NCBI GenBank assembly: GCA_037968875.1
Contig: JBBKWI010000085.1
Location: 1,072 to 65,071 of the forward strand
DNA: 64,000 nt
From: Candidatus Sericytochromatia bacterium
GTDB lineage: Bacteria > Cyanobacteriota > Sericytochromatia > UBA7694
Direction: 5' to 3'
The position numbers and the translations under genes are program-made. Under the pieces are notes generated by a model that saw nothing but the letters and a program-made list of their open reading frames with translations, was not told the origin of the DNA and did no database searches. This document shows, one piece after another, positions 12,143 through 64,000 of this stretch. Numbering within the stretch: the first letter of the stretch is position 1; the number at the start of each line of letters is the position of its first letter.

Positions 12143-12763
12143 TTGATGCAAAAGGAAGAGCTTTTAATGAAACAAATTCAATGGCAGCGAATTGCCCCGA
12201 TTTCACTTGCGGGAGGAGTGCTTGCCGGGATCTGGTTTTATAAGTCTAGCCGGGCGCGTGCCCAGCAGGAGTCTCAAGAAATTGTTGACCACGTTGATTT
12301 GCGACGCCTGATGGGAACCTGGTATGAAATTGCACGTTTCCCGAATCTATTTCAAAAAGAGGACTGGGTCGGGGCAACAGATAATTATTATCCCCAGGAG
12401 AACGGAGAGATTGAAGTGATCTACCGTTACCATGAAAAACAGTTTGATGCCCCGCTAAAAGAAATCAAAGCAAAAATGTGGCGTGAGCCCAAAGATGCGC
12501 CAAGTGGCAAATTTAAGTATCAGGCTTTGTGGCCCTTTACTGTAGATTATTGGGTGATTGAATTGGGTACGGAATATGAGTATCTGGTGATTGGCTATCC
12601 CAACCACAATATGCTATGGATTATGTCTCGCACTCCGAGTCTGGACGAAGGCACTTACCGAGGCATTTTAGAGCGTGTAGCTAATCAAGGCTATGATGTG
12701 TCTAAACTGATCAAAGTCCCCCAGCCCAGTCATGCCAGAGCGATTTTAGCTCCTACGCCTTAG
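12143..12763 (+). CDS. blc: Bacterial lipocalin (Blc-like)
   Basis: ORF of 206 aa with 'LRRLMGTWYEIARFPN', the structurally conserved lipocalin region. Confidence 0.7.
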   Translation: MMQKEELLMKQIQWQRIAPISLAGGVLAGIWFYKSSRARAQQESQEIVDHVDLRRLMGTWYEIARFPNLFQKEDWVGATDNYYPQENGEIEVIYRYHEKQFDAPLKEIKAKMWREPKDAPSGKFKYQALWPFTVDYWVIELGTEYEYLVIGYPNHNMLWIMSRTPSLDEGTYRGILERVANQGYDVSKLIKVPQPSHARAILAPTP

Positions 12764-13809
12764 TAACGCAGGATCTGTAAATTGAGTAAACGCTGGTAAT
12801 AGGCATCTTGCTCTGGCGGGCTCAATAAAAGCACTGTTGAGATCGCGTCTGCCTGCGTCGCCGTCGGCGCAATCACCGTTATCTGATTTGCTGGATTGGC
12901 AGGGTAACCGGTTCGGGGATCGATAATATGACCATAGACCTGGCCTGCTATTTCAAAAGATTGTTCTACTTGGTTGGAGCTTGAGATGGCCTGATTCTGG
13001 AGCCAGAAAATTTTGTCTATAGTCTCAAGTTCCCTGGCGGGATTGTCAGGGGAAACTCTGAGACGAACGGGCCAACCCTGATTTGATATTGAACGGTTTA
13101 ACTGGGGTGGAGAGCCCCAAAATATCTGAGTAGATCCGCCAGCGTCAATGGCGGCATATGCCACTCCCTGCGCTTTGATCCAGTGCATGGCAGCATCGAG
13201 AGCAAGGCCTTTGCCAATCGCTCCAAAGTCCAGCCGTGTTCCTGAACGCAATAAGCGAAACTGGCAGGGTTGGCTTTTGTTGGTAAGCAAAGGGGCTCGC
13301 AGTTCAAAGGGGCTGGGGTGGATTTTTTGCAAAGCTTGTTTAATTTCTGCTGATGTCGGGAGCCGGTAGTCACGGCTTTTAAATCCCCAAATTTGCATCA
13401 GCGGTTCCAGGCCAATATTAAAGGCTCCTGCTGAAACATGTTGATAATATCTAGATTCAATCAGGGCCTGACACAGGATCGGCGAGATTGCTACGGATTG
13501 CTGAGGATCATCAGCAATGGTTTCAGCCTTTGCCAGCACGCGATTGAGTTCACTTGTCTCTAGATAATCGCTGAGCGCCTGATCATAAGCCCGCAAACGC
13601 TCAAAAACAGTGGTGAAGAGATTGCTATTGGCAGCTGGCAGCTGTACCGTAAACAGGGTTCCCATAATATACTCTGCCCGTTGTAGCGGTCTGGCTGGGG
13701 GTTCTGGCATGGCAAAAGCCGCCGAGCTAGAGCAAATAAACAGGCAATAGTATAGCCAAAGCTTAATGGGAGTAGGCAGGTATTTGATCAATGGTATAGA
13801 GATTTTCAA
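12760..13809 (-). CDS. apbE: FAD:protein FMN transferase (ApbE family)
   Basis: ORF of 349 aa with a signal peptide or lipobox. The ApbE-like core includes 'DFGAIGKG' and 'AIDAGGS'. Confidence 0.65.
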   Translation of the reverse strand: MKISIPLIKYLPTPIKLWLYYCLFICSSSAAFAMPEPPARPLQRAEYIMGTLFTVQLPAANSNLFTTVFERLRAYDQALSDYLETSELNRVLAKAETIADDPQQSVAISPILCQALIESRYYQHVSAGAFNIGLEPLMQIWGFKSRDYRLPTSAEIKQALQKIHPSPFELRAPLLTNKSQPCQFRLLRSGTRLDFGAIGKGLALDAAMHWIKAQGVAYAAIDAGGSTQIFWGSPPQLNRSISNQGWPVRLRVSPDNPARELETIDKIFWLQNQAISSSNQVEQSFEIAGQVYGHIIDPRTGYPANPANQITVIAPTATQADAISTVLLLSPPEQDAYYQRLLNLQILRY

Positions 13810-15202
13810 TTTTGATACAGTCGAATTCGGCCTGATAAACGCGTTCCAATAAAGACACGATCATTTGATGGCTAATGCCTTGTTCCTGAGGATGCAAAAA
13901 ACGGCAGTGCCAGCGATCGGTGCGCCGGGTTTCAGCAAAGCCATTTGGCCAGACAATGACACCCAGATTGGTTATCAATTTCAAGCGCAATTCTGTATCA
14001 GAAAGTTCTAGCATACTGGCAGCCAGGGCCTCAGCATCTTCTGAACGCCAATCAAAAAAGAGATCGACTCCCACCAATTCTTTTTCGACCTGAGGGATTT
14101 GATACTGAAATGGCTGTTGTTTATGGGCATTGGAACCCTTTGGGTAGGTGACGAGGGCTAAGCATTGTGGGTTTTGCCCCAGGCGTTCAATGACCGCATT
14201 GGCAAAAGCCTGAGTACCGACCCGTTGCTGTGAAAGCCCTTCTCGGTAGACGTCTACAGTATGGTAGCCCTCTTCTAAGGTTCTTAAGAGGGCGTTATGC
14301 ACCTTCTGAGCGATGGTACCCTGACCAATCTGAACCAACATCATCACAGCGGCTAAAAGTAAGCCACTGGGGTTAGCCAGATCCTGTTCAGCTAAACCGG
14401 GTGCTGAGCCATGAATCGCTTCAAACATGACACCCCGATCTCCAAAATTTGCAGCTCCCCCCAGGCCTTTTGAACCGGTGGTAATCTGGGCCACGACATC
14501 AGATAAAATATCGCCATAGAGATTGGGAATCACAATCACATCGTAATCTTGAGGTCTTTCTGTTAAGCGAGCTGTGCCGGTATCCAAACTCTGATGTTCA
14601 CAGTCGATCTCCGGATAGTCCTGAGCAATTTCACGAAAAATTTGATGAAAAAAACCATCGGTGAATTCCATCACCTTGTCTTTGGTAAAGGCCGAGACTT
14701 TTTTGCGATTATTGTGTCGGGCGTATTCAAAAGCATAGCGGATGATTTTTTCGCAGCCAGGGCGTGAGATCAGTTTTAGACATTGCACGACGTCTGTGGT
14801 CTGGCGATGCTCAATGCCCCCGTAGAGATCTTCTTCATTCTCCCGGATAATCACGACATCCAGGTGGGGATGTCGTGAGGGTATATAAGGGTGAAAAGAA
14901 ATACAGGGTCGAATATTGGCGTAGAGGCCCAGAGATTTACGAATCGTGACATTTAGATTCTTATACTGACTGCCCTGGGGTGTAGTCACCGGTGCTTTTA
15001 AGAAGACCTGGGTTCGCCGAATGCTTTCCCAGGCTGCTTCACGAATACCGGCAAGCTCGCCCTCACGATAGATTTTTTCGCCAATTTCGATCACTTCAGG
15101 CTGGAGCGCGGCGCCAGCAGAATCCAGAATGCGCAGGACCGCAGACATGATTTCAGGGCCGATACCGTCTCCATAGGCCACCGTGATGGGCTGTGGCTGC
15201 AT
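13763..15202 (-). CDS. Isocitrate/isopropylmalate dehydrogenase-family protein with a ~130-aa C-terminal extension
   Basis: ORF of 479 aa with 'YGDGIGPEI', 'SLNVTIRK', 'NLYGDILSD' and 'HGSAPGLA'. The canonical fold ends at about residue 345. Confidence 0.65.
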   Translation of the reverse strand: MQPQPITVAYGDGIGPEIMSAVLRILDSAGAALQPEVIEIGEKIYREGELAGIREAAWESIRRTQVFLKAPVTTPQGSQYKNLNVTIRKSLGLYANIRPCISFHPYIPSRHPHLDVVIIRENEEDLYGGIEHRQTTDVVQCLKLISRPGCEKIIRYAFEYARHNNRKKVSAFTKDKVMEFTDGFFHQIFREIAQDYPEIDCEHQSLDTGTARLTERPQDYDVIVIPNLYGDILSDVVAQITTGSKGLGGAANFGDRGVMFEAIHGSAPGLAEQDLANPSGLLLAAVMMLVQIGQGTIAQKVHNALLRTLEEGYHTVDVYREGLSQQRVGTQAFANAVIERLGQNPQCLALVTYPKGSNAHKQQPFQYQIPQVEKELVGVDLFFDWRSEDAEALAASMLELSDTELRLKLITNLGVIVWPNGFAETRRTDRWHCRFLHPQEQGISHQMIVSLLERVYQAEFDCIKIENLYTIDQIPAYSH

Positions 15203-48522: not shown

Positions 48523-50133
48523 TTACAATCTAAGGCCTGTGTAAGCCACTCCAGACAAATGTGCCATTTCGCGATCTAAGGTTCCCAGATCATCCAGACA
48601 AAATTGATTCAGATGATCATGACCACAGGCTCTGGCCATTACTTGCATCAATTCCACGCTGGCTTCAAAAAAGTTTTTAAGGCGCACGGCTGATTTTTGA
48701 ATATCCAGTCGGGCCCGTAAACTTTCTTTTTGAGTGGCAATTCCGACCGGGCAATAATCGGTGTGGCAGGCGCGCATCGCCTGACAGCCAATTGCCTGGA
48801 GTGCAGAGTTCGAGACCGCAATCGCATCGGCACCTAATGCCAGGGCTTTAATGAAGTCCGGGGCCGTGCGTAAGCCGCCGGTGATCACGAGGGTGACGTC
48901 TAAGCGGCCCAGACGATTAAGATGTTGGCGAGCTCTGGCCAAAGCAGCAATCGTAGGGACTGAAATATGGTTTCTAAAAATCAGTGGAGCAGCACCGGTT
49001 CCACCGCCCCGTCCATCGAGAATAAGATAGTCCACACCGATTTCTAAGGCTGCGTCTATATCGGCTTCGATGTGATTGGCTGAGAGTTTAAAGCCAATCG
49101 GGATGCCTCCACTGACAGAACGCACCTCTTCAGCCAGGCCTGTAAAGTCTGCTAACGAATGCATATCCGGGAAGGTTGCCGGTGAAATGGCCGGTTCTCC
49201 AGCAGGAATCCCACGTACTTCTGAGATTCTACCTTTGTTTTTGTGGCCAGGTAAATGACCACCGGTCCCTGTTTTTGCGCCCTGTCCACCTTTGAAGTGG
49301 AAAGCCTGTACCTGCGAGAGTAATTCCATTTTAAAGCCAAAGCGGGCCGAGGCCAATTCATAAAAATAGCGCTTGTTTTCAGCTTGCTCTTCAGGTAACA
49401 TGCCGCCTTCGCCTGAGCAAATACCGGTCCCGGCCATTTCTGCACCCCGGGCCAAAGCGATCTTTGACTCTTCCGACAGCGAGCCAAAGCTCATGTCAGA
49501 GACAAATAAGGGGATTTCAAGTATTAAAGGTTTTTTTGCTTTCGGTCCGATCACGACCTGGGTGCCCACAGGGGCTTCATCTAAGAGCGGGCGGCGCATC
49601 AATTGTGCCGGCAAGATTTGGATACTGTCCCAGGCGGGCAATTCATTGCGCCCCACACCCATGGCGGCGACGGGCCCATGGTGCCCCACTTTGCTTAAGC
49701 CATCTTTGGCTAGAGCCTGAATATCTGCCATTGTGTCTTCTTCAGGGGTCGGGGCGGTGGCTACAAAATTCCCCAGGTATTCGTCGCGCTTGAGCATGTG
49801 CGGATTCGCTTTGGCATATGCCTTGACTTCATCAGCATCGACCCAGACCTGATCCCCGTCTCGACCGGCACTAAATTTGTGCAAGACTTCAGCGTTATTG
49901 TATTGACTGACACCGGTATCCAGGCGATAGTCCCAGTTGTGTACACCACAGATTAGATTGTCACCCTCAACATAGCCATCAGCCATCAATGCACCGCGAT
50001 GTAAGCAGCGACCATAATAGACAGCAATCGTGTCATCAATGCGAAGCACCACCAGATCAATTTGTTGGGCCAGGGCATATGCGGGCTGACGATCTGCGAG
50101 ATCGTTCCAGCTATAAATGTTCTGCTTGTTCAT
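48523..50133 (-). CDS. Rieske [2Fe-2S] domain fused to a glutamate-synthase-like FMN-binding domain
   Basis: ORF of 536 aa. The N-terminus has 'CLH...(17)...CGVH', a Rieske CxH...CxxH motif. The C-terminus is a GltS-central-domain-like TIM barrel ('GEGGMLPEE', 'DGRGGGTGAAP'). Confidence 0.65.
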   Translation of the reverse strand: MNKQNIYSWNDLADRQPAYALAQQIDLVVLRIDDTIAVYYGRCLHRGALMADGYVEGDNLICGVHNWDYRLDTGVSQYNNAEVLHKFSAGRDGDQVWVDADEVKAYAKANPHMLKRDEYLGNFVATAPTPEEDTMADIQALAKDGLSKVGHHGPVAAMGVGRNELPAWDSIQILPAQLMRRPLLDEAPVGTQVVIGPKAKKPLILEIPLFVSDMSFGSLSEESKIALARGAEMAGTGICSGEGGMLPEEQAENKRYFYELASARFGFKMELLSQVQAFHFKGGQGAKTGTGGHLPGHKNKGRISEVRGIPAGEPAISPATFPDMHSLADFTGLAEEVRSVSGGIPIGFKLSANHIEADIDAALEIGVDYLILDGRGGGTGAAPLIFRNHISVPTIAALARARQHLNRLGRLDVTLVITGGLRTAPDFIKALALGADAIAVSNSALQAIGCQAMRACHTDYCPVGIATQKESLRARLDIQKSAVRLKNFFEASVELMQVMARACGHDHLNQFCLDDLGTLDREMAHLSGVAYTGLRL

Positions 50134-51070: not shown

Positions 51071-51086
51071 TGTCACCTGCGTGACA
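51071..51086. promoter_or_regulatory. Candidate Crp/Fnr-family operator: TGTCA-CCTGCG-TGACA (perfect dyad)
   Basis: The site lies in the divergent intergenic region about 62 bp upstream of the ATG at 51009. It is one of six copies of this dyad found between 51 and 64 kb. Confidence 0.5.
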
Positions 51087-54089: not shown

Positions 54090-54512
54090 TCAGTCTTGTA
54101 GGTCTCGTTCTTGTAGACGATTCTGAAACTGGTGCTGCTTGATCTCAATGGCCCGTGAAGCGAAAACAATCAAGAGCACCAGTGCAATTAGCCAGGCTAA
54201 AATACCCAGGCAGAGGCCCCAGCGGCTAAACCCACTGAGATTTTCAAACAGTGAGCTGATCGCAACCAGTAAAAAAGAGCCTGCGCTAGCATAAAGACAG
54301 AACAAGCTTTGGCTTAGCCGCTTAAGTTGCTGTATTTTTTGGCGTGTCAATTGCTGATCCAGCGGATTTTGCTGCAGCAAGGTGTGGATCTCCTGACTTA
54401 AATAAACCGATAGGTTGACCGTTGACATAATCACCAGCCCGACTCCGGGCATCAGGCTGAGAGGCAATATAGCTTGTTCTAAAAGATTCATTGAAAATAG
54501 GCCTGTCTTCAT
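54090..54512 (-). CDS. Small membrane protein (3–4 transmembrane segments)
   Basis: ORF of 140 aa. It is the last gene of the operon containing the Met-rich protein and cytochrome c. The true start may be the second ATG ('MNLLEQ'), just after the hairpin. Confidence 0.4.
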   Translation of the reverse strand: MKTGLFSMNLLEQAILPLSLMPGVGLVIMSTVNLSVYLSQEIHTLLQQNPLDQQLTRQKIQQLKRLSQSLFCLYASAGSFLLVAISSLFENLSGFSRWGLCLGILAWLIALVLLIVFASRAIEIKQHQFQNRLQERDLQD

Positions 54513-54524
54513 TTAGACAGGCCT
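54499..54524 (-). terminator. Strong 10-bp GC-rich hairpin between cytochrome c and the membrane-protein gene
   Basis: AGGCCTGTCT-tcattt-AGACAGGCCT. On the minus-strand mRNA it is followed by AUUUUCA, then an AUG. The annotated first AUG sits in the loop. Confidence 0.35.
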
Positions 54525-54533
54525 AACTCCTTT

Positions 54534-54896
54534 TTATTTCTTTTTCAGGGTGTGTATATAGGCAACAACATCCTGAATTTGCGTATCAGACAGGGTCGTT
54601 CCCCAGGCCGGCATCGCCCCTTTGCCCTTCTTGATAAAGGCCAGCATTCCAGCATCATTTTTGCTGTACTTAAAATCCCCTATCGAAAAATTCCGTGGGG
54701 GTGGCTTCAGGGCTTTGCCCGTTGGGCCGTCCGCCTTGCCGGTTTTGCCATGACAGGCAGAACAGTTTTGGGCATAGATTTTTTTACCCTTGCTGGCATT
54801 GCCTGCCGCAGCTTCAGCGGGTGGGCTGCTTTGCCATAGAGCAGCATAAGACATGCCTCCGCTAACAGCTATAATCAGAGCTAATTTTTTAAACAT
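54534..54896 (-). CDS. Class I c-type cytochrome (c6/c553-like), secreted
   Basis: ORF of 120 aa with a signal peptide, the single heme-binding 'CSACHG' and a distal Met ligand region 'GAMPAWG'. Confidence 0.75.
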   Translation of the reverse strand: MFKKLALIIAVSGGMSYAALWQSSPPAEAAAGNASKGKKIYAQNCSACHGKTGKADGPTGKALKPPPRNFSIGDFKYSKNDAGMLAFIKKGKGAMPAWGTTLSDTQIQDVVAYIHTLKKK

Positions 54897-54918
54897 TTCT
54901 GAACTCCTTTTTTATGAT

Positions 54919-56787
54919 TTACTTTAGTTTGAGGGTAATGCTACTGCGAACCACAGGAGCGGTCCCATACTTGCCCCCGGCAAACATGGGATTAGGTACA
55001 CCATCTTCATCGGTATCACGCATTTCCATCATCATTTTCATGCGTTGGTCTTGCGGCATTGTCATTAACTTTTTCATCTGCAGGGTCATTTTCGCCATTT
55101 CAATTTCGTCCTCGGGAAGATCTTCACCGGATTGCCCCATTTCAGCCAATTGCAGTCCCTGGCCATCTTCGCGTCTAACGGTGTGGTTGAAAAAGAGCGT
55201 CATGTGTTTGACTGCATCAGCCTGCAGCGGTTCTGAAGCCAGGGCCAGGTCGCGCAAAGCACCCAGTGTTGCAGCCACCGTCGCAGGGCTAAAAGTAGTC
55301 TGGTGTTGATCGTTGCGCTGGGCTTTAAACAATTGATTGGATTCAGACCAGAATTGTTGCTTCAGAGCCTGGTACCCTTTGCTAGCTGCACTCAGGTAAC
55401 GGGCATCTTTTGTGGTTTTATAAGCCAGAGTCAGTGTTCTGATGGCCTGGGTCTGGGCTTCCAGGTTAGGGTTAGTCAAATCAGCTTGTTGACGATTCAA
55501 GTCATAACCGTTGGCAAAACTGCCATCTTTTTGTTGCAGCTGATTCAGTACAAAATCAGCTTGCTGGGTTAAAAAATCTCGGGCCATTTTTTGAATCATG
55601 GGCTCATTATGAAAAGCCCGCACACTGTTTTCAAGCGCAACGGCCAGGACGCCCAGTTCAGCGGTGTCGGCGTAAGTGCCTGCTTTACCCGGTTCAGCAC
55701 GGCTGGCCATCACCTGATGCTGTGAGTTTTGATGCATGGCCATCAAATTTTTGAGAATCACCGCCGAAATACCCTTGCTTAACATATGGGGATCTTGAGG
55801 AAAGAGGGCACCTTTGCTTTCGTCGCCAAAGATAGCATCATAGCTGTCTTTGACTGTGGGGTCTGAATAGTGGTAAAACTCACTGCTGGCCCAGAGTAAA
55901 GAAGCCTGATCATAAAGGTGACTGCTTTTATCCAGGACATCAAAGCCAGCCAGCATGGGGGGCATACCTGGCATCATCGACTTCAGTTGGGGTTTGACGG
56001 CGTGTGGAAAATACTTCAGGCCTTGCATGGGATCGTAAGTCATGGGATTGACGGCACCCAGATTTTTCCCATCAAACGCCAGTTGATCTTTAAAGGTCAT
56101 CAGACTGTTGAGTGCCAAAGCGGTCAGGACGCCGCCACGAAAACCATCAAAAGCATCTCTGCCCAGGAGATTGCCGCGATGCGATGAGAAAAAGTCTTCG
56201 GCCCAGAGGATTTGTTTGGTGGCTGTTTGACCGATGGCTGCTGGGGTCAGGGTTTGATCGGCCTGCCCAGGGTCCCAGCGCATGGTGCCAAAGTCAAAGG
56301 GGTTGGGGCTTTGGGTAAATTGGGGATTGCCTTCAGCAAAGGGTAAATAGATCGGGTAGGGATTTTTGGGCATCTCTTGTAGCCCGGAGCGCATCATAAA
56401 TTGCTTCATTTTGTGCATCATAAAATCCTGGGGTTTGGCAAATTTGTCAGGATTCATTTTAGACATTTGCTGTCCCACTGGGCCATTGACCATATGCACA
56501 CCCATGCCGGAGTTCATCACCAGGCTGCCCATATTGTAAACGCTATACCAATAGGCATCTGAATTGATGCTGGAGCCCAGTGATTTATACGGCAGGCCGC
56601 AGGAAAAAATTAGAATTTCTTCATTGGCCAGCTGCATTGCTGCCGCGGTATTAAAGCGCGGGGCCTTGTGCTTGTCAGCCATCATCATGTCCTGTTCAGC
56701 TGCCAGAGCCGAAGTCGGAACCAGCTGCACAAACAACACGGAGGCTGCTGTCAGGTTCAGTATTTTGGACGGTAAGGATAATTTCAT
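54919..56787 (-). CDS. Secreted Met-rich protein of unknown function
   Basis: ORF of 622 aa with a signal peptide. It has Met clusters at both ends ('EQDMMMADKH', 'FMMHKMKQFMMR', 'MKMMMEMR'). It contains no CxxCH motif. Confidence 0.4.
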   Translation of the reverse strand: MKLSLPSKILNLTAASVLFVQLVPTSALAAEQDMMMADKHKAPRFNTAAAMQLANEEILIFSCGLPYKSLGSSINSDAYWYSVYNMGSLVMNSGMGVHMVNGPVGQQMSKMNPDKFAKPQDFMMHKMKQFMMRSGLQEMPKNPYPIYLPFAEGNPQFTQSPNPFDFGTMRWDPGQADQTLTPAAIGQTATKQILWAEDFFSSHRGNLLGRDAFDGFRGGVLTALALNSLMTFKDQLAFDGKNLGAVNPMTYDPMQGLKYFPHAVKPQLKSMMPGMPPMLAGFDVLDKSSHLYDQASLLWASSEFYHYSDPTVKDSYDAIFGDESKGALFPQDPHMLSKGISAVILKNLMAMHQNSQHQVMASRAEPGKAGTYADTAELGVLAVALENSVRAFHNEPMIQKMARDFLTQQADFVLNQLQQKDGSFANGYDLNRQQADLTNPNLEAQTQAIRTLTLAYKTTKDARYLSAASKGYQALKQQFWSESNQLFKAQRNDQHQTTFSPATVAATLGALRDLALASEPLQADAVKHMTLFFNHTVRREDGQGLQLAEMGQSGEDLPEDEIEMAKMTLQMKKLMTMPQDQRMKMMMEMRDTDEDGVPNPMFAGGKYGTAPVVRSSITLKLK

Positions 56788-56849
56788 GGTGCCTCTTCAA
56801 TTTTTTTTCGAGAATAGGTTTAGTATTAAACAAATGAGTCTGGATATAC

Positions 56850-56865
56850 TGTCAGCCAGATGACG
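56850..56865. promoter_or_regulatory. Candidate Crp/Fnr-family operator: TGTCA-GCCAGA-TGACG (1 mismatch)
   Basis: The site lies about 65–80 bp upstream of the Met-rich protein ATG at 56787. Confidence 0.4.
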
Positions 56866-57741: not shown

Positions 57742-57757
57742 TGTCAGGGGGATGACA
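57742..57757. promoter_or_regulatory. Candidate Crp/Fnr-family operator: TGTCA-GGGGGA-TGACA (perfect dyad)
   Basis: The site is central in the divergent 57708–57811 intergenic region, 62 bp before the DUF4344 ATG and 42 bp before the minus-strand gene start. Confidence 0.5.
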
Positions 57758-58594: not shown

Positions 58595-59719
58595 TTACTC
58601 GGCTGAATAGATGCTGCTGTCAGGTCGAAAGACCAACCAGGCAAAGGCAAAATAATCGCCATAAGGCAAAAGCTTCAATTGTTGACCCTGCAACGGGCCT
58701 GTCAGGGCTTGACCCGTTGCGCTCCAGACCGATCCGGTTTGCTGATCACGCACCTGTCCGGCCTGCCATTCAAAGCTTAATACTTTACCCTGCACCACAG
58801 GATCAAAAACCCCTGTAGTGCCCGCCTGCTGTGAGTCAGCAATCTTGCTGGCATCCAGTGCTGAAACGGCACCATCCAGATGAAAAACCACCAAATCCTG
58901 AGTGCCCACCCGATCCTGAATGACGCGCTGCTGCCGGGTCAGACGGTAGGGATATGCTTTGCTCTGATCTGAAAAATGGACACCCAAGACCTTTTCCATG
59001 GGCGGCAGGCGCGGATCGGTTTCACCGTCAAAGCGAAAAGGCCGCTGAGAAATATCGTCGTAACCTCGGTAAGGATTATGGCCATAATCGCGCTCATAAC
59101 CCGTTTCACGTGAGAGAACCTGGCCTTCAGGGTGCTGGGCCTGAAACTGTTCAAAAGAAATAATCTGTGAAGGCCTGACTTTCAGCTGGGCTCCGGTCAG
59201 ATTGCCGACCACAGCTTCACCGGTAAATTGTTGCCAGAGACTCTCAGTTTGCCGGTCATACATGATCATATCTGAATGGCGCAACATGCCCGAAACGCCA
59301 AACTCCAGAGTCTTTGAGCCCACGATGCGTTCAAAAACCAGTGCGCTGTAGCAGAGCGGGCAAAAGGTGATCAGTACCGGTTGGCCTTCAAAGATATCAT
59401 TCACCATTTCATGCCAGATCAGAATTTGCAGCGGATAGGCCCGGGCTTCCTGGCTACCCGCCAGTGCAATTACGGGCTCCTGGGGCTTGAGCCATTGACT
59501 GGCCGCTGCTAAAGTAATAAATCGAGGGTGATCAATGCTAGGAATACCGTCTTTTGGCGGTCCGCCGGGCAAAAGCTCCTGCAGGGGGATACTACTTTTA
59601 CTTAAATCAGTCTCAAATCCACTGATAGGCAATGCGAGTGAAGAACTTGAATCAGACATAATGGCTCCTGTGTGTGTATTTAGTGCAGTGAGTGCGGCAG
59701 AGAGCTGGAACGGCTGCAA
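58595..59719 (-). CDS. DUF3179-family protein
   Basis: ORF of 374 aa with 'HEMVNDIFEG.PVLITFCPLCYSALVF...FGVSGMLRHSDMIMYDRQTESLWQQ'. Confidence 0.45.
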   Translation of the reverse strand: MQPFQLSAALTALNTHTGAIMSDSSSSLALPISGFETDLSKSSIPLQELLPGGPPKDGIPSIDHPRFITLAAASQWLKPQEPVIALAGSQEARAYPLQILIWHEMVNDIFEGQPVLITFCPLCYSALVFERIVGSKTLEFGVSGMLRHSDMIMYDRQTESLWQQFTGEAVVGNLTGAQLKVRPSQIISFEQFQAQHPEGQVLSRETGYERDYGHNPYRGYDDISQRPFRFDGETDPRLPPMEKVLGVHFSDQSKAYPYRLTRQQRVIQDRVGTQDLVVFHLDGAVSALDASKIADSQQAGTTGVFDPVVQGKVLSFEWQAGQVRDQQTGSVWSATGQALTGPLQGQQLKLLPYGDYFAFAWLVFRPDSSIYSAE

Positions 59720-59766: not shown

Positions 59767-59782
59767 TGTCAGATAGCTGACA
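59767..59782. promoter_or_regulatory. Candidate Crp/Fnr-family operator: TGTCA-GATAGC-TGACA (perfect dyad)
   Basis: The site lies in the divergent region, 55 bp before the DUF3179 start and about 123 bp before the ALS-like ATG. Confidence 0.5.
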
Positions 59783-63511: not shown

Positions 63512-63527
63512 TGTCATCTACCTGACA
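63512..63527. promoter_or_regulatory. Candidate Crp/Fnr-family operator: TGTCA-TCTACC-TGACA (perfect dyad)
   Basis: The site lies about 85–92 bp upstream of the membrane-protein start at 63427 and about 80 bp past the regulator stop. Confidence 0.5.
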
Positions 63528-63602: not shown

Positions 63603-64000
63603 CTAGCTTAAAAGCGAACTGACGGGACTCAACCAGATGATTTTTCGTTTTTGCATGCGAATCTTGCCCTGGTCTTGCAGGCGCTTGAGCAAATCCGTGA
63701 CCGTGGGCCGGGCCAGGTTGGTCAACTCGCCCAGATCCTGATGGGTCAGGGGTAAATTGATCAGCGTACCGTCTGGCAAGGATTCACCGTGCTCTTTGCT
63801 GAGGTATTTTAAGACACTTTCAATCCGCTGCTCAGCAGTTTTAAAGACCAGATCCTGCACGCGGCTTGTGACCTGGCGCAGGCGTAAACCCATTAGCTTG
63901 GTGACTTTGAGATTGAGTTGGGGGTGACTTTCTAAAAAGGATTCAAAGTCATTTTTATGTACGATGCAGAGCAAGGTTTCTTCCAGGGCTTCAGCCATGC
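63603..64000 (-). CDS. Crp/Fnr-family transcriptional regulator (3' part; the gene continues beyond the window end)
   Basis: It shows cNMP-binding-like and HTH_Crp C-terminal regions ('THQDLGELTNLARPTVTDLLKRL'). The N-terminus lies outside the window. Confidence 0.65.
   Translation of the reverse strand, partial: MAEALEETLLCIVHKNDFESFLESHPQLNLKVTKLMGLRLRQVTSRVQDLVFKTAEQRIESVLKYLSKEHGESLPDGTLINLPLTHQDLGELTNLARPTVTDLLKRLQDQGKIRMQKRKIIWLSPVSSLLS

Follow-up and report, generated by a model that had tools for sequence, protein, structure and literature searches.

A candidate periplasmic redox module in Sericytochromatia pairing an undescribed six-hairpin barrel protein with a class I cytochrome c

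The 64,000-nucleotide stretch of contig JBBKWI010000085.1 from a Candidatus Sericytochromatia bacterium analysed here (the window) carries on its minus strand a gene for a 622-residue exported protein, followed by a gene for a monohaem class I cytochrome c. We consider it fairly probable that the two products form a periplasmic redox module, in which the 622-residue protein binds the substrate or catalyses the reaction and exchanges electrons with the co-transcribed cytochrome c as its dedicated partner. An operon in which an enzyme gene precedes that of a small carrier is of a familiar kind; the catalytic scaffold and its family are undescribed. The features of the two genes are as follows.

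54919–56787, minus strand: open reading frame (ORF) of the 622-residue exported protein (BIG; below, the barrel protein), founding member here of an unannotated (α/α)6 six-hairpin family
56698–56787, minus strand: predicted Sec-type signal peptide, residues 1–30 (ending TSALA/AE), a lone N-terminal hydrophobic segment (residues 12–30) with no twin arginine and with low predicted local distance difference test (pLDDT) values
55180–56565, minus strand: predicted twelve-helix (α/α)6 barrel, residues ~75–536, from AlphaFold2 secondary structure, carrying W171, H262, D286, D293, H352, Q445 and R512
55948–55986, minus strand: Met-rich loop, residues 268–280 (KSMMPGMPPM), within the long h4–h5 loop, between the conserved H262 and D286
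55018–55122, minus strand: Met-rich helical hairpin, residues 556–590, with 10 Met, inserted between the AEMGxTGE motif and the DxDxDG tail
54952–55017, minus strand: DxDxDGxPxPxF tail, residues 591–612, with D591 and D595 in 22/22 orthologs and D593 in 21/22
54534–54896, minus strand: monohaem class I cytochrome c, 120 residues (PF13442, 67.7 bits against a cutoff of 27, E = 1.2e-18; PF00034, 50.4 bits against a cutoff of 21.3, E = 5.7e-13)
54750–54764, minus strand: haem-binding motif C45-S-A-C-H49 of the cytochrome c, from the translation

The barrel gene and its electron carriers

The exported protein, cytochrome c and small membrane protein that an initial annotation of this DNA had described as a three-gene set are all present as minus-strand ORFs, at 54919–56787 (622 residues), 54534–54896 (120 residues) and 54090–54512 (140 residues). 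The first has no haem motif, as had been noted (zero CxxCH and one Cys, C63). Its N-terminal hydrophobic segment ends in ALA/AE and lacks a twin arginine, and Sec-type export is therefore predicted. The gene 3' of it encodes a monohaem class I cytochrome c, as proposed, judged by its C45-S-A-C-H49 motif and its Pfam matches over cutoff; the best NCBIfam match, cytochrome c6 PetJ (NF045930), reaches 55.7 bits against a cutoff of 135, so the protein is not a PetJ ortholog.

Comparison of loci related to the window barrel gene (L-numbers) with one another, and of relatives of the 622-residue protein (P-numbers), indicates that the pairing with a carrier is maintained while the type of carrier is not. 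A homologous monohaem cytochrome c gene lies ~20–60 bp 3' of the barrel gene in every locus of the Sericytochromatia or Blackallbacteria type (the window, L001, L006, L008/L009, L010–L012, L019, L023 and L024). Orthologs in other phyla, at 36–43% identity, have a different type of carrier at the same place: a plastocyanin/azurin-family cupredoxin (PF00127) in L002, in the Verrucomicrobiae loci L014 and L026 and in the Opitutales locus L018; and, in the Saprospiraceae (L013, L015, L016, L017 and L021), a protein of 240–313 residues with an amicyanin-like type-1 copper loop (HNVRT...C-D-V-H-G-W-M; C-x2-H-x2-M) and a C-terminal CarboxypepD_reg domain. The next gene in the Saprospiraceae encodes a dihaem class I cytochrome c (L013, L017 and L021) or a partial ORF with a CxxCH motif (L016), the L015 contig ending earlier. 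In the Planctomycetota (L020 and L022) an 8-haem and a 3-haem cytochrome follow. A small carrier is thus found downstream in all ortholog loci with readable DNA there, from Sericytochromatia, Saprospiraceae, Verrucomicrobiota and Planctomycetota.

A group of paralogs at 27–32% identity, from ten metagenome loci (L029, L031, L033–L036, L040, L042, L051 and L053), lies in a conserved operon of its own, comprising a sigma54 response regulator, one or two type-1 cupredoxin–CarboxypepD_reg proteins (PF00127, 9e-5), an outer-membrane barrel of the Phenol_MetA_deg type and the six-hairpin protein; the cupredoxin–CarboxypepD_reg fusion seems to be undescribed. Cupredoxins of the CuA-like (CSTTCGYMHPFM) or type-1-like kind are encoded 3–16 bp 3' of the paralog in L034, L041, L044 and L036. 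In L034 (8932–11438; also in L041 and L044) the genes 3' of the paralog encode a membrane-anchored CuA-like cupredoxin (CSTTCGYMHPFM), a 485-residue polytopic Fer4_5 protein with 15 Cys and a second COX2-like protein, a three-gene set that resembles an unusual small copper/iron-sulfur membrane module.

Carrier domains are also fused to the barrel. A CxxCH motif is present in 15/161 relatives, outside the barrel domain or inserted into it, and 9 of the 11 CxxCH-containing relatives scanned against Pfam match PF13442, PF00034 or PSCyt1, at the C-terminal end or within the barrel; P0016 and P0049 have an N-terminal CxxCH and no Pfam cytochrome match. The window cytochrome c is 34–38% identical to the domains fused to P0032, P0034 and P0040. 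The occurrence of cytochrome c or CxxCH before, after or inside the barrel in different relatives suggests that fusion took place several times. A carrier that is replaced non-orthologously and a cytochrome c that is attached at varied positions are together the classical signature of a functional redox partnership, and it is on these grounds that we favour one here. Adjacency or fusion to cytochrome c or a cupredoxin, which the initial annotation had proposed to follow across genomes, is conserved between lineages, and its suggested tie to periplasmic electron transfer gains much strength from both the downstream carriers and the fusions.

Other haem proteins occur in the vicinity of some relatives. 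The most distant clade (P0012 and P0013, ~790 residues) is represented by two paralogs in a single locus (L003, 8001–10364 and 14653–17160) and by L007, with RoxA-like dihaem cytochromes, a ferritin-like gene and an amine-oxidase-type flavoprotein as neighbours. Cytochrome P460 genes lie a few kb from the barrel–cytochrome c pair in L006 (7038–7559), L008 (2406–2792) and L024 (14103–14618), which hints at hydroxylamine or NO chemistry in the neighbourhood.

Family, fold and methionine-rich elements

Searches of Pfam, NCBIfam and PDB sequences with the single 622-residue sequence returned sub-threshold or partial matches only, in line with the initial annotation, which had not recognised the family. 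Short Pec_lyase and C5-epimerase matches cover residues 438–528. The pectate lyase model PF09492 scores 24.3 bits (cutoff 22), yet over only 91/292 model positions, so that there is no full-length pectate lyase match, and TIGR02474 scores 15 bits against a cutoff of 189.8. PF07221 (GlcNAc_2-epim) gave nothing at E ≤ 1 with the 622-residue protein and is marginal in two distant relatives (P0022, 23.5 bits; P0044, 20.6 bits; cutoff 23.4). The Pfam scan of the protein found no CopC, CusF, cupredoxin or Cu-oxidase match, and nothing in it identifies a multicopper oxidase. A word-index search of 5.8e9 proteins returned 13 relatives, all hypothetical, the named ones coming from Sericytochromatia and Melainabacteria metagenome-assembled genomes; repeating it with a broader alignment added none. 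When a profile was run exhaustively against 1.84 billion cluster representatives, 568 relatives passed E ≤ 1e-3 and 83 of these passed E ≤ 1e-30, the resulting family size of ~570 being a count of representative clusters at 50% identity. Every named member is a 'hypothetical protein', an 'uncharacterized protein' or, once, a 'cytochrome c domain-containing protein', and literature searches found no paper on the six-hairpin family, the papers returned dealing with Met-rich domains, DUF3179 and the Cmr motif as background. The family is undescribed and has neither a Pfam or NCBIfam model nor a solved structure.

An AlphaFold2 model built from a 35-sequence alignment has a pLDDT of 90.8 and a predicted template modelling score (pTM) of 0.90; an earlier model from 10 sequences was poor in its N-terminal half (pLDDT 66.6). 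The 35-sequence model shows, besides the twelve barrel helices, one more helix at the N terminus and, at the C-terminal end, a helical hairpin and a tail. Foldseek comparison with the PDB retrieved mannose isomerase, cellobiose 2-epimerase, AGE, YihS and GH76 structures with a probability of 1.00 and E values down to 8.6e-7, at template modelling (TM) scores of ~0.55–0.6 of the target and identities of 7–12%. A profile search of PDB sequences reached cellobiose 2-epimerase at 5e-12, through the generic hairpin repeat only; likewise, the sequence-profile alignments to AGE enzymes span generic hairpin repeats (residues ~400–500). The model thus identifies the protein as a predicted (α/α)6 six-hairpin barrel, a remote relative of the AGE superfamily that lies outside any described family. 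The kinship to CopC, PcoC and CusF suggested in the initial annotation finds support in neither fold nor sequence, the modelled protein being an all-α barrel. That annotation had also named a central domain with a well-known enzyme fold unrelated to metal or redox function as a result that would refute it, and formally the central domain has such a fold, one that normally serves neither.

The twelve-helix (α/α)6 barrel is shared with the AGE superfamily and GH76 (cellobiose 2-epimerase, N-acylglucosamine 2-epimerase, mannose isomerase, YihS and GH76 mannanases). The window protein differs from them in its Sec signal, extra N-terminal helix, Met-rich inserts, DxDxDG tail and linkage to electron carriers, and no Pfam model of those families passes its cutoff. 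From the sequence-profile alignments, with their coverage of hairpin repeats, H262, D286, D293, H352, Q445, R512 and W171 of the window protein could not be placed on the His/His/Glu/Arg catalytic set of AGE. Proteins of the Thioredox_DsbH/YyaL/SPATA20 type (e.g. PDB 7TKV), which are among the fold and profile matches, also join an AGE-like (α/α)6 barrel to a redox-type domain; their match to the window protein is weak (sequence E value 0.004, TM score ~0.25), and their redox domain is a thioredoxin-like N-terminal fusion, in contrast to a cytochrome c or cupredoxin.

The polar residues kept throughout the family (69–161 relatives, including giant proteins) are W171, H262, D286, D293, H352, Q445 and R512, with E549 and E555; H352 is kept in 60/61 relatives. 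The orthologs additionally keep H98, H334, E56, E303, D309, D314 and D317, together with Y79, Y81, Y84, Y251, Y259, Y305 and the DxDxDG tail. This tail is retained after the barrel in many distant relatives as well and, with E549 and E555, probably forms an acidic loop of the Ca2+ type. C63, the single Cys of the protein, was considered as a catalytic or ligand residue of the family and rejected: it is kept in close orthologs only, its equivalent being Leu in P0016, Asn in P0025, unaligned in P0024 and, elsewhere, missing or variable. As each barrel helix runs antiparallel to the next, the loops after even-numbered helices share one face. In the model, R170/W171, Y251–H262–D286–D293, H352, D421/G422, Q445, W480 and E549/E555 would all lie on this face, where we infer a single funnel rich in His and carboxylates, putatively a metal- or substrate-binding site.

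The 622-residue protein contains 44 Met (7.07%), as against 0.8–4.4% (median ~2.5%) in the 31 other window ORFs of at least 250 residues, so that the enrichment seen in the initial annotation is beyond the ordinary for this DNA. The protein contains Met-rich motifs of the MxxM/MxM type. The motifs quoted in that annotation are all present, although their sequences are conserved to different degrees: MMMADKH, which adjoins the signal peptide, is not conserved, FMMHKMKQFMMR is conserved in part, and the C-terminal Met block is conserved in composition and not in sequence. This last block corresponds to the hairpin, with 10 Met in residues 560–590; its helices (561–575 and 579–590) are predicted at pLDDT 83–93, and the Met of helix 561–575 lie on one helical face (resultant 0.87). 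At the site of loop 268–280, Saprospiraceae orthologs have MTKMMMNMMMP and P0014 has GMMMGMMKMMMKMKG. Orthologs of four phyla thus share the two positions at which Met-rich inserts are found, while the length and sequence of the inserts vary. In the model both elements would lie on the same face as the conserved residues, the hairpin directly after E549/E555.

The upstream dyad, a candidate regulon and the third gene

The features outside the two-gene core that bear on its expression are listed below; the dyads are given without strand.

56851–56864: operator-type dyad GTCATCTGGCTGAC (TGTCA-N6-TGAC[G/A]), 77 nt 5' of the ATG of the 622-residue gene
51072–51085: second operator copy cTGTCACCTGCGTGACAa, between the DUF5996/Rieske–FMN operon and the Pyr_redox_2–glutaredoxin–AhpC-like genes
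57743–57756: third operator copy TGTCAGGGGGATGACA, between a 227-residue gene and a DUF4344 gene
59768–59781: fourth operator copy TGTCAGATAGCTGACA, between the DUF3179 and the TPP-enzyme/aldehyde dehydrogenase genes
63513–63526: fifth operator copy TGTCATCTACCTGACA, 5' of a 152-residue gene and beside a Crp-family helix–turn–helix (HTH) gene
63603–63998, minus strand: Crp-family HTH gene next to the fifth operator copy, cut by the window end, its sensor domain lying beyond the window
54498–54525, minus strand: intrinsic-terminator-like hairpin from a terminator scan, an 11-bp stem followed by UUUU, between the cytochrome c gene and the third gene
54090–54491 (listed ORF start 54512), minus strand: small accessory membrane protein with three hydrophobic segments, 133 residues from M8

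GTCATCTGGCTGAC is the only perfectly conserved block in the otherwise diverged alignment of the upstream regions of the window and L009, which bears out the dyad placed near 56850 by the initial annotation. A dyad of the TGTCA-N6-TGACA type recurs in six related loci, so that it occurs at −77 to −85 in 7/7 Sericytochromatia-type loci with upstream sequence (the window, L009, L010, L011, L019, L024 and L006). An inverted-repeat search with a seed of at least 6 missed it, its arms being 4–5 bp, and it was recovered by comparative alignment. In the window GTCA-N6-TGAC is observed 8 times against 0.6 expected, a count reached in 0/100 shuffles; the five extended-arm dyads are all intergenic and lie within 51–64 kb, four being perfect and the 56851 copy ending in TGACG in one arm. 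Related Sericytochromatia loci contain 3–6 copies each of a relaxed form of the pattern, including perfect TGTCA-N6-TGACA copies (two in L006, one in L008, and four to six in L001, L011, L019 and L024), and the copies precede thioredoxin/DsbD, DUF3179, AhpC-like, barrel and YceI–P460 genes. In the loci from other phyla no dyad with TGTCA/TGACA arms was found, L002 and L035 having one CGTCA-type match each. A scan for sigma70-like promoters on the minus strand upstream of 56787 called none.

The half-site equals that of the SELEX (systematic evolution of ligands by exponential enrichment) consensus TGTCA-N6-[C/T]GACA of Cmr, a CRP/FNR-family regulator of M. tuberculosis (PMC4705688). The dyad resembles the Cmr operators in its 5-N6-5 palindrome, in its half-site and in the presence of several copies before a set of neighbouring genes, and in L010 its position, ~21 nt 5' of a −10-like GATAAT, fits that of a class II activator site. 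On this likeness, the five dyads probably define a CRP/FNR-type regulon island at ~48.5–64 kb, in which the barrel operon would stand together with thiol-redox and antioxidant genes: the Rieske–FMN (flavin mononucleotide) protein, which is GltS-like, DUF5996, Pyr_redox_2, glutaredoxin, an AhpC-like CPYC protein, DUF4344, DUF3179, a thiamine pyrophosphate (TPP) enzyme and an aldehyde dehydrogenase. The Crp-family HTH gene at 63603–63998 is the obvious candidate regulator, and Crp/Fnr-family homologs also adjoin the barrel gene in the Saprospiraceae loci L015, L017, L027 and L054 and in L006. The initial annotation had considered a role in copper or oxidant handling. Both remain plausible for the barrel module; oxidant handling draws indirect support from the operator common to peroxiredoxin-like, glutaredoxin, disulfide-reductase and DUF3179 genes, whereas copper handling is without cop or cus genes nearby.

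Some members of this neighbourhood merit description in their own right. A DUF3179 gene is found no more than a few kb from the barrel gene in the window (58595–59719, minus strand), in L001 (4344–5411) and in L035 (13456–14622), the last being the locus of a more distant paralog (29% identity) whose DUF3179 protein is 51% identical to the window copy; DUF3179 has selenoprotein members (PMC9312934), which suggests a redox Cys/Sec protein. The gene at 48523–50133 (minus strand) encodes an unusual fusion of a Rieske [2Fe-2S] domain with a glutamate-synthase-type FMN domain, and an FMN-domain protein with 35% identity to it is encoded at 12712–13815 of the Planctomycetota locus L020, ~5 kb from the barrel gene. 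The recurrence of a Glu_synthase-type FMN protein near the barrel gene in the window and L020, at this identity, was judged too weak to be used.

The third gene appears to stand apart from the core. Its product is indeed a small membrane protein, with three transmembrane (TM) segments in place of the three to four first counted; from homology to the 133-residue protein of L009 (73% identity) its likely start is M8, at position 54491. The DUF2721 match (PF11026) of the 140-residue form is weak (17.7 bits against a cutoff of 28.3), the three-TM topology being present. The gene is found in the closest relative (L009) only and is absent from L001, L006 and all other phyla. The hairpin that precedes it has a free energy of −23.1 kcal/mol (z = −6.9), and its equivalent in L009, with compensatory changes, has −21.8 kcal/mol (z = −4.6). 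Given the conserved hairpin after the cytochrome c gene and the restriction of the third gene to the closest relative, the core unit is therefore taken to be two genes: the operon of the initial annotation stands for the barrel and cytochrome c, while the third gene lies behind a terminator-like hairpin. As a core subunit the three-TM protein was rejected, by its narrow distribution and the preceding terminator.

Candidate chemistries and proposed mechanism

Several observations weigh against assigning a redox role, and a copper role in particular, to the barrel. All of the evidence is computational, and the clustering of H262, H352, D286 and D293 is read from helix and loop topology alone. 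The fold and the family-wide set of His, Asp, Arg, Gln and Trp would equally suit an ordinary carbohydrate-active site. Relatives that stand closer to the window protein than those with a fused cytochrome are modules within giant surface proteins (2,000–5,700 residues) and keep the core residues, and CxxCH is found in 0/5 of the closest of these (P0018, P0020–P0022 and P0042) and, among the ~16 listed, in P0129 only. Met-richness does not define the family: the Met content of orthologs ranges from 2.3 to 8.3%, and the hairpin site, which holds 5–17 Met in most orthologs, is deleted in P0009 and P0016. None of the loci contains cop, cus or cue genes or a regulator that senses copper, a zf_CopZ-domain protein in Blackallbacteria-type loci being the only exception. 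That the giants are mostly haem-free and yet keep the core residues calls for caution, since the ancestral function may be binding or non-redox catalysis.

The giants are themselves varied. The six-hairpin domain, with H262, D293, H352 and R512 kept, occurs within proteins of 1,600–5,700 residues (P0018, P0020–P0022, P0042, P0058, P0062 and others). DUF11 is present in the five that were scanned (P0018, P0019, P0020, P0022 and P0036), P0018 adding SdrD_B, GEVED and CarboxypepD_reg repeats and P0019 a type IX secretion system (T9SS) tail.

Of the chemistries that the module might perform, copper handling by a cuprous oxidase is possible, if rather unlikely. Cu(I) recruited by a lid of the Met-rich elements would be oxidised to Cu(II) in the barrel and the electron passed to the cytochrome c or cupredoxin in place of O2, which would make the protein an O2-independent counterpart of CueO for a low-oxygen periplasm. 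The Met-rich inserts lie beside conserved His and Asp residues at the same two sites in four phyla, with Met-richness as their constant feature; the Met content exceeds that of every other window ORF compared (7.1% against at most 4.4%), and the Met of helix 561–575 are one-faced. The Met-rich domain of CueO behaves likewise, being dispensable for catalysis and aiding Cu+ recruitment (PMC11494321). The partners are copper proteins in many lineages, the outer-membrane barrel and periplasmic cupredoxin of the paralog operon recall Pco/Cop, L034 encodes polytopic Fer4_5 and CuA-like proteins, and a co-regulated periplasmic thiol-redox set would suit copper-induced disulfide stress. However, none of the genes CopA, CusABC, CueO, CopC, CopD, CueR and CopRS is found in ~50 loci, the regulators seen belong to the Crp/Fnr, LysR and sigma54 response-regulator classes, no known copper protein has a related fold, and P0009, P0016, P0025 and the paralogs have an ordinary Met content and yet keep their redox partners. 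The inserts being conserved in position, variable in composition and dispensable, the copper idea therefore stays alive, short of proof.

The comparison with CueO and PcoA points in both directions. Like them the window protein is periplasmic by prediction and a strong Met outlier, with a Met-rich segment that is variable and, in some members, dispensable, which suggests Cu(I) recruitment near an active site (PMC11494321). Unlike them it has no cupredoxin domains, no HxH copper motifs and no copper-resistance gene context, and its signal is of the Sec and not the Tat type; its acceptor would be a separate cytochrome c or cupredoxin as opposed to an internal trinuclear centre that reduces O2.

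A periplasmic dehydrogenase feeding respiration, in which the barrel would oxidise an organic substrate (perhaps a sugar, uronate or aromatic compound) and pass electrons through the cupredoxin or cytochrome c to a terminal oxidase, we regard as unlikely, though it has clear precedents in the organisation of known systems. Methylamine dehydrogenase (MADH)–amicyanin–cytochrome c551i, NirK and the quinohaemoprotein dehydrogenases likewise have a catalytic subunit followed by a small carrier, with carrier swapping and cytochrome c fusions. The Saprospiraceae order of barrel, type-1 cupredoxin with an amicyanin-type loop and dihaem cytochrome c mirrors the MADH chain, and the C-terminal cytochrome c fusions mirror quinohaemoproteins. 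A Sec signal would suit a cofactor acquired after export to the periplasm; sugar binding agrees with the fold and with the His/Asp/Arg/Gln/Trp pocket; the Phenol_MetA_deg-type channel and sigma54 regulator of the paralog operon are as in uptake and catabolic operons; and P0010, P0012 and P0013 have dihaem proteins of the CCP_MauG-like and RoxA-like kinds nearby. In contrast to MADH, NirK and the quinohaemoproteins, the presumed catalytic subunit is of an unrelated fold and has no recognised cofactor motif, no known organic cofactor motif among them. No pqq or mau-type maturation genes were seen in most loci, and the Sericytochromatia context is of a stress type, not a catabolic one. Maturation of a tryptophan tryptophylquinone (TTQ) cofactor by a MauG-type enzyme was set aside as a minor possibility: the loci of Sericytochromatia, Verrucomicrobiota and Saprospiraceae contain none of the CCP_MauG-like and RoxA-like genes that lie near P0010 and P0013.

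Bacterial cytochrome c peroxidase (CcP), NirK and NosZ typically take their electrons from either a cytochrome c or a cupredoxin. This interchangeability also suits a periplasmic oxidant reductase resembling CcP, which we hold to be a little more doubtful still, in which carrier electrons would reach a metal site in the barrel and reduce H2O2, an organic peroxide or an N-oxide such as NO, the surface Met serving as a sacrificial shield. The operator common to AhpC/Prx-like, glutaredoxin, disulfide-reductase, thioredoxin/DsbD, DUF3179 and YceI–cytochrome P460 genes (the window, L001, L006, L008, L019 and L024) argues for it, as do the adjacent cytochrome P460 genes of L006, L008 and L024, the Crp/Fnr-family regulators that flank Saprospiraceae loci and the selenoprotein members that mark DUF3179 as a redox family (PMC9312934). 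The 622-residue protein, however, has no haem motif or known peroxidatic site, its one Cys (C63) gives way to Leu in P0016 and to Asn in P0025 and is unaligned in P0024, and the regulon link is documented in Sericytochromatia only.

That the protein is an ordinary non-redox six-hairpin protein (a carbohydrate epimerase, lyase, hydrolase or binding module) beside an incidental cytochrome c is very improbable, because the carrier is replaced non-orthologously across four phyla, adjacent in all ortholog loci with readable flanks, and joined as cytochrome c or CxxCH before, after or inside the barrel in what look like several fusion events, and this despite best structural and profile matches to sugar epimerases, isomerases and GH76 (at 7–12% identity, the sequence matches being confined to generic hairpin repeats), weak Pec_lyase and C5-epimerase matches, the presence of the domain in giant adhesin-like proteins (DUF11, SdrD_B and T9SS tails) mostly without cytochromes, and GH106 and BNR genes nearby in two loci.

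We therefore return to the reading of the two-gene core as a redox module, for which the following mechanism can be proposed. A CRP/FNR-family regulator would switch on the barrel operon together with the neighbouring thiol-redox and antioxidant genes, co-regulation that suggests a service in the response to redox, oxidant or metal stress; the three-TM protein would be expressed by terminator read-through only. Because the signal is of the Sec and not the Tat type, the cofactor would be inserted in the periplasm, where Cu, Ca or a self-made cofactor would fit. H262, D286, D293 and H352, with Q445, R512, W171, E549 and E555, may form a metal- or substrate-binding funnel on the long-loop face; the barrel would bind its substrate, and probably a metal, in this His/Asp funnel and exchange electrons with the dedicated cytochrome c. 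Loop 268–280 and hairpin 556–590 may form a lid over the site, either shielding it or drawing in a soft ligand, most likely Cu(I) by analogy with the Met-rich domain of CueO.

More tentatively, the family may represent a new class of periplasmic or extracellular metallo-oxidoreductase on the six-hairpin scaffold, with copper or another metal in a His/Asp pocket that is serviced by blue-copper proteins or c-type cytochromes and gated, in some lineages, by a Met-rich lid; an O2-independent Cu(I):cytochrome c oxidoreductase would be one example of its chemistry. The module offers testable objects in a two-gene unit with its partner, candidate active-site residues, two deletable Met-rich lids and a conserved operator of a thiol-redox and antioxidant regulon. 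The family spans several phyla and is present in Sericytochromatia, the non-photosynthetic sister lineage of Cyanobacteria, in which respiration and stress physiology are of interest to evolutionary biology. Should the barrel prove to be a redox enzyme, it would constitute a new catalytic scaffold for periplasmic electron transfer, built on a six-hairpin fold that otherwise serves non-redox sugar chemistry.

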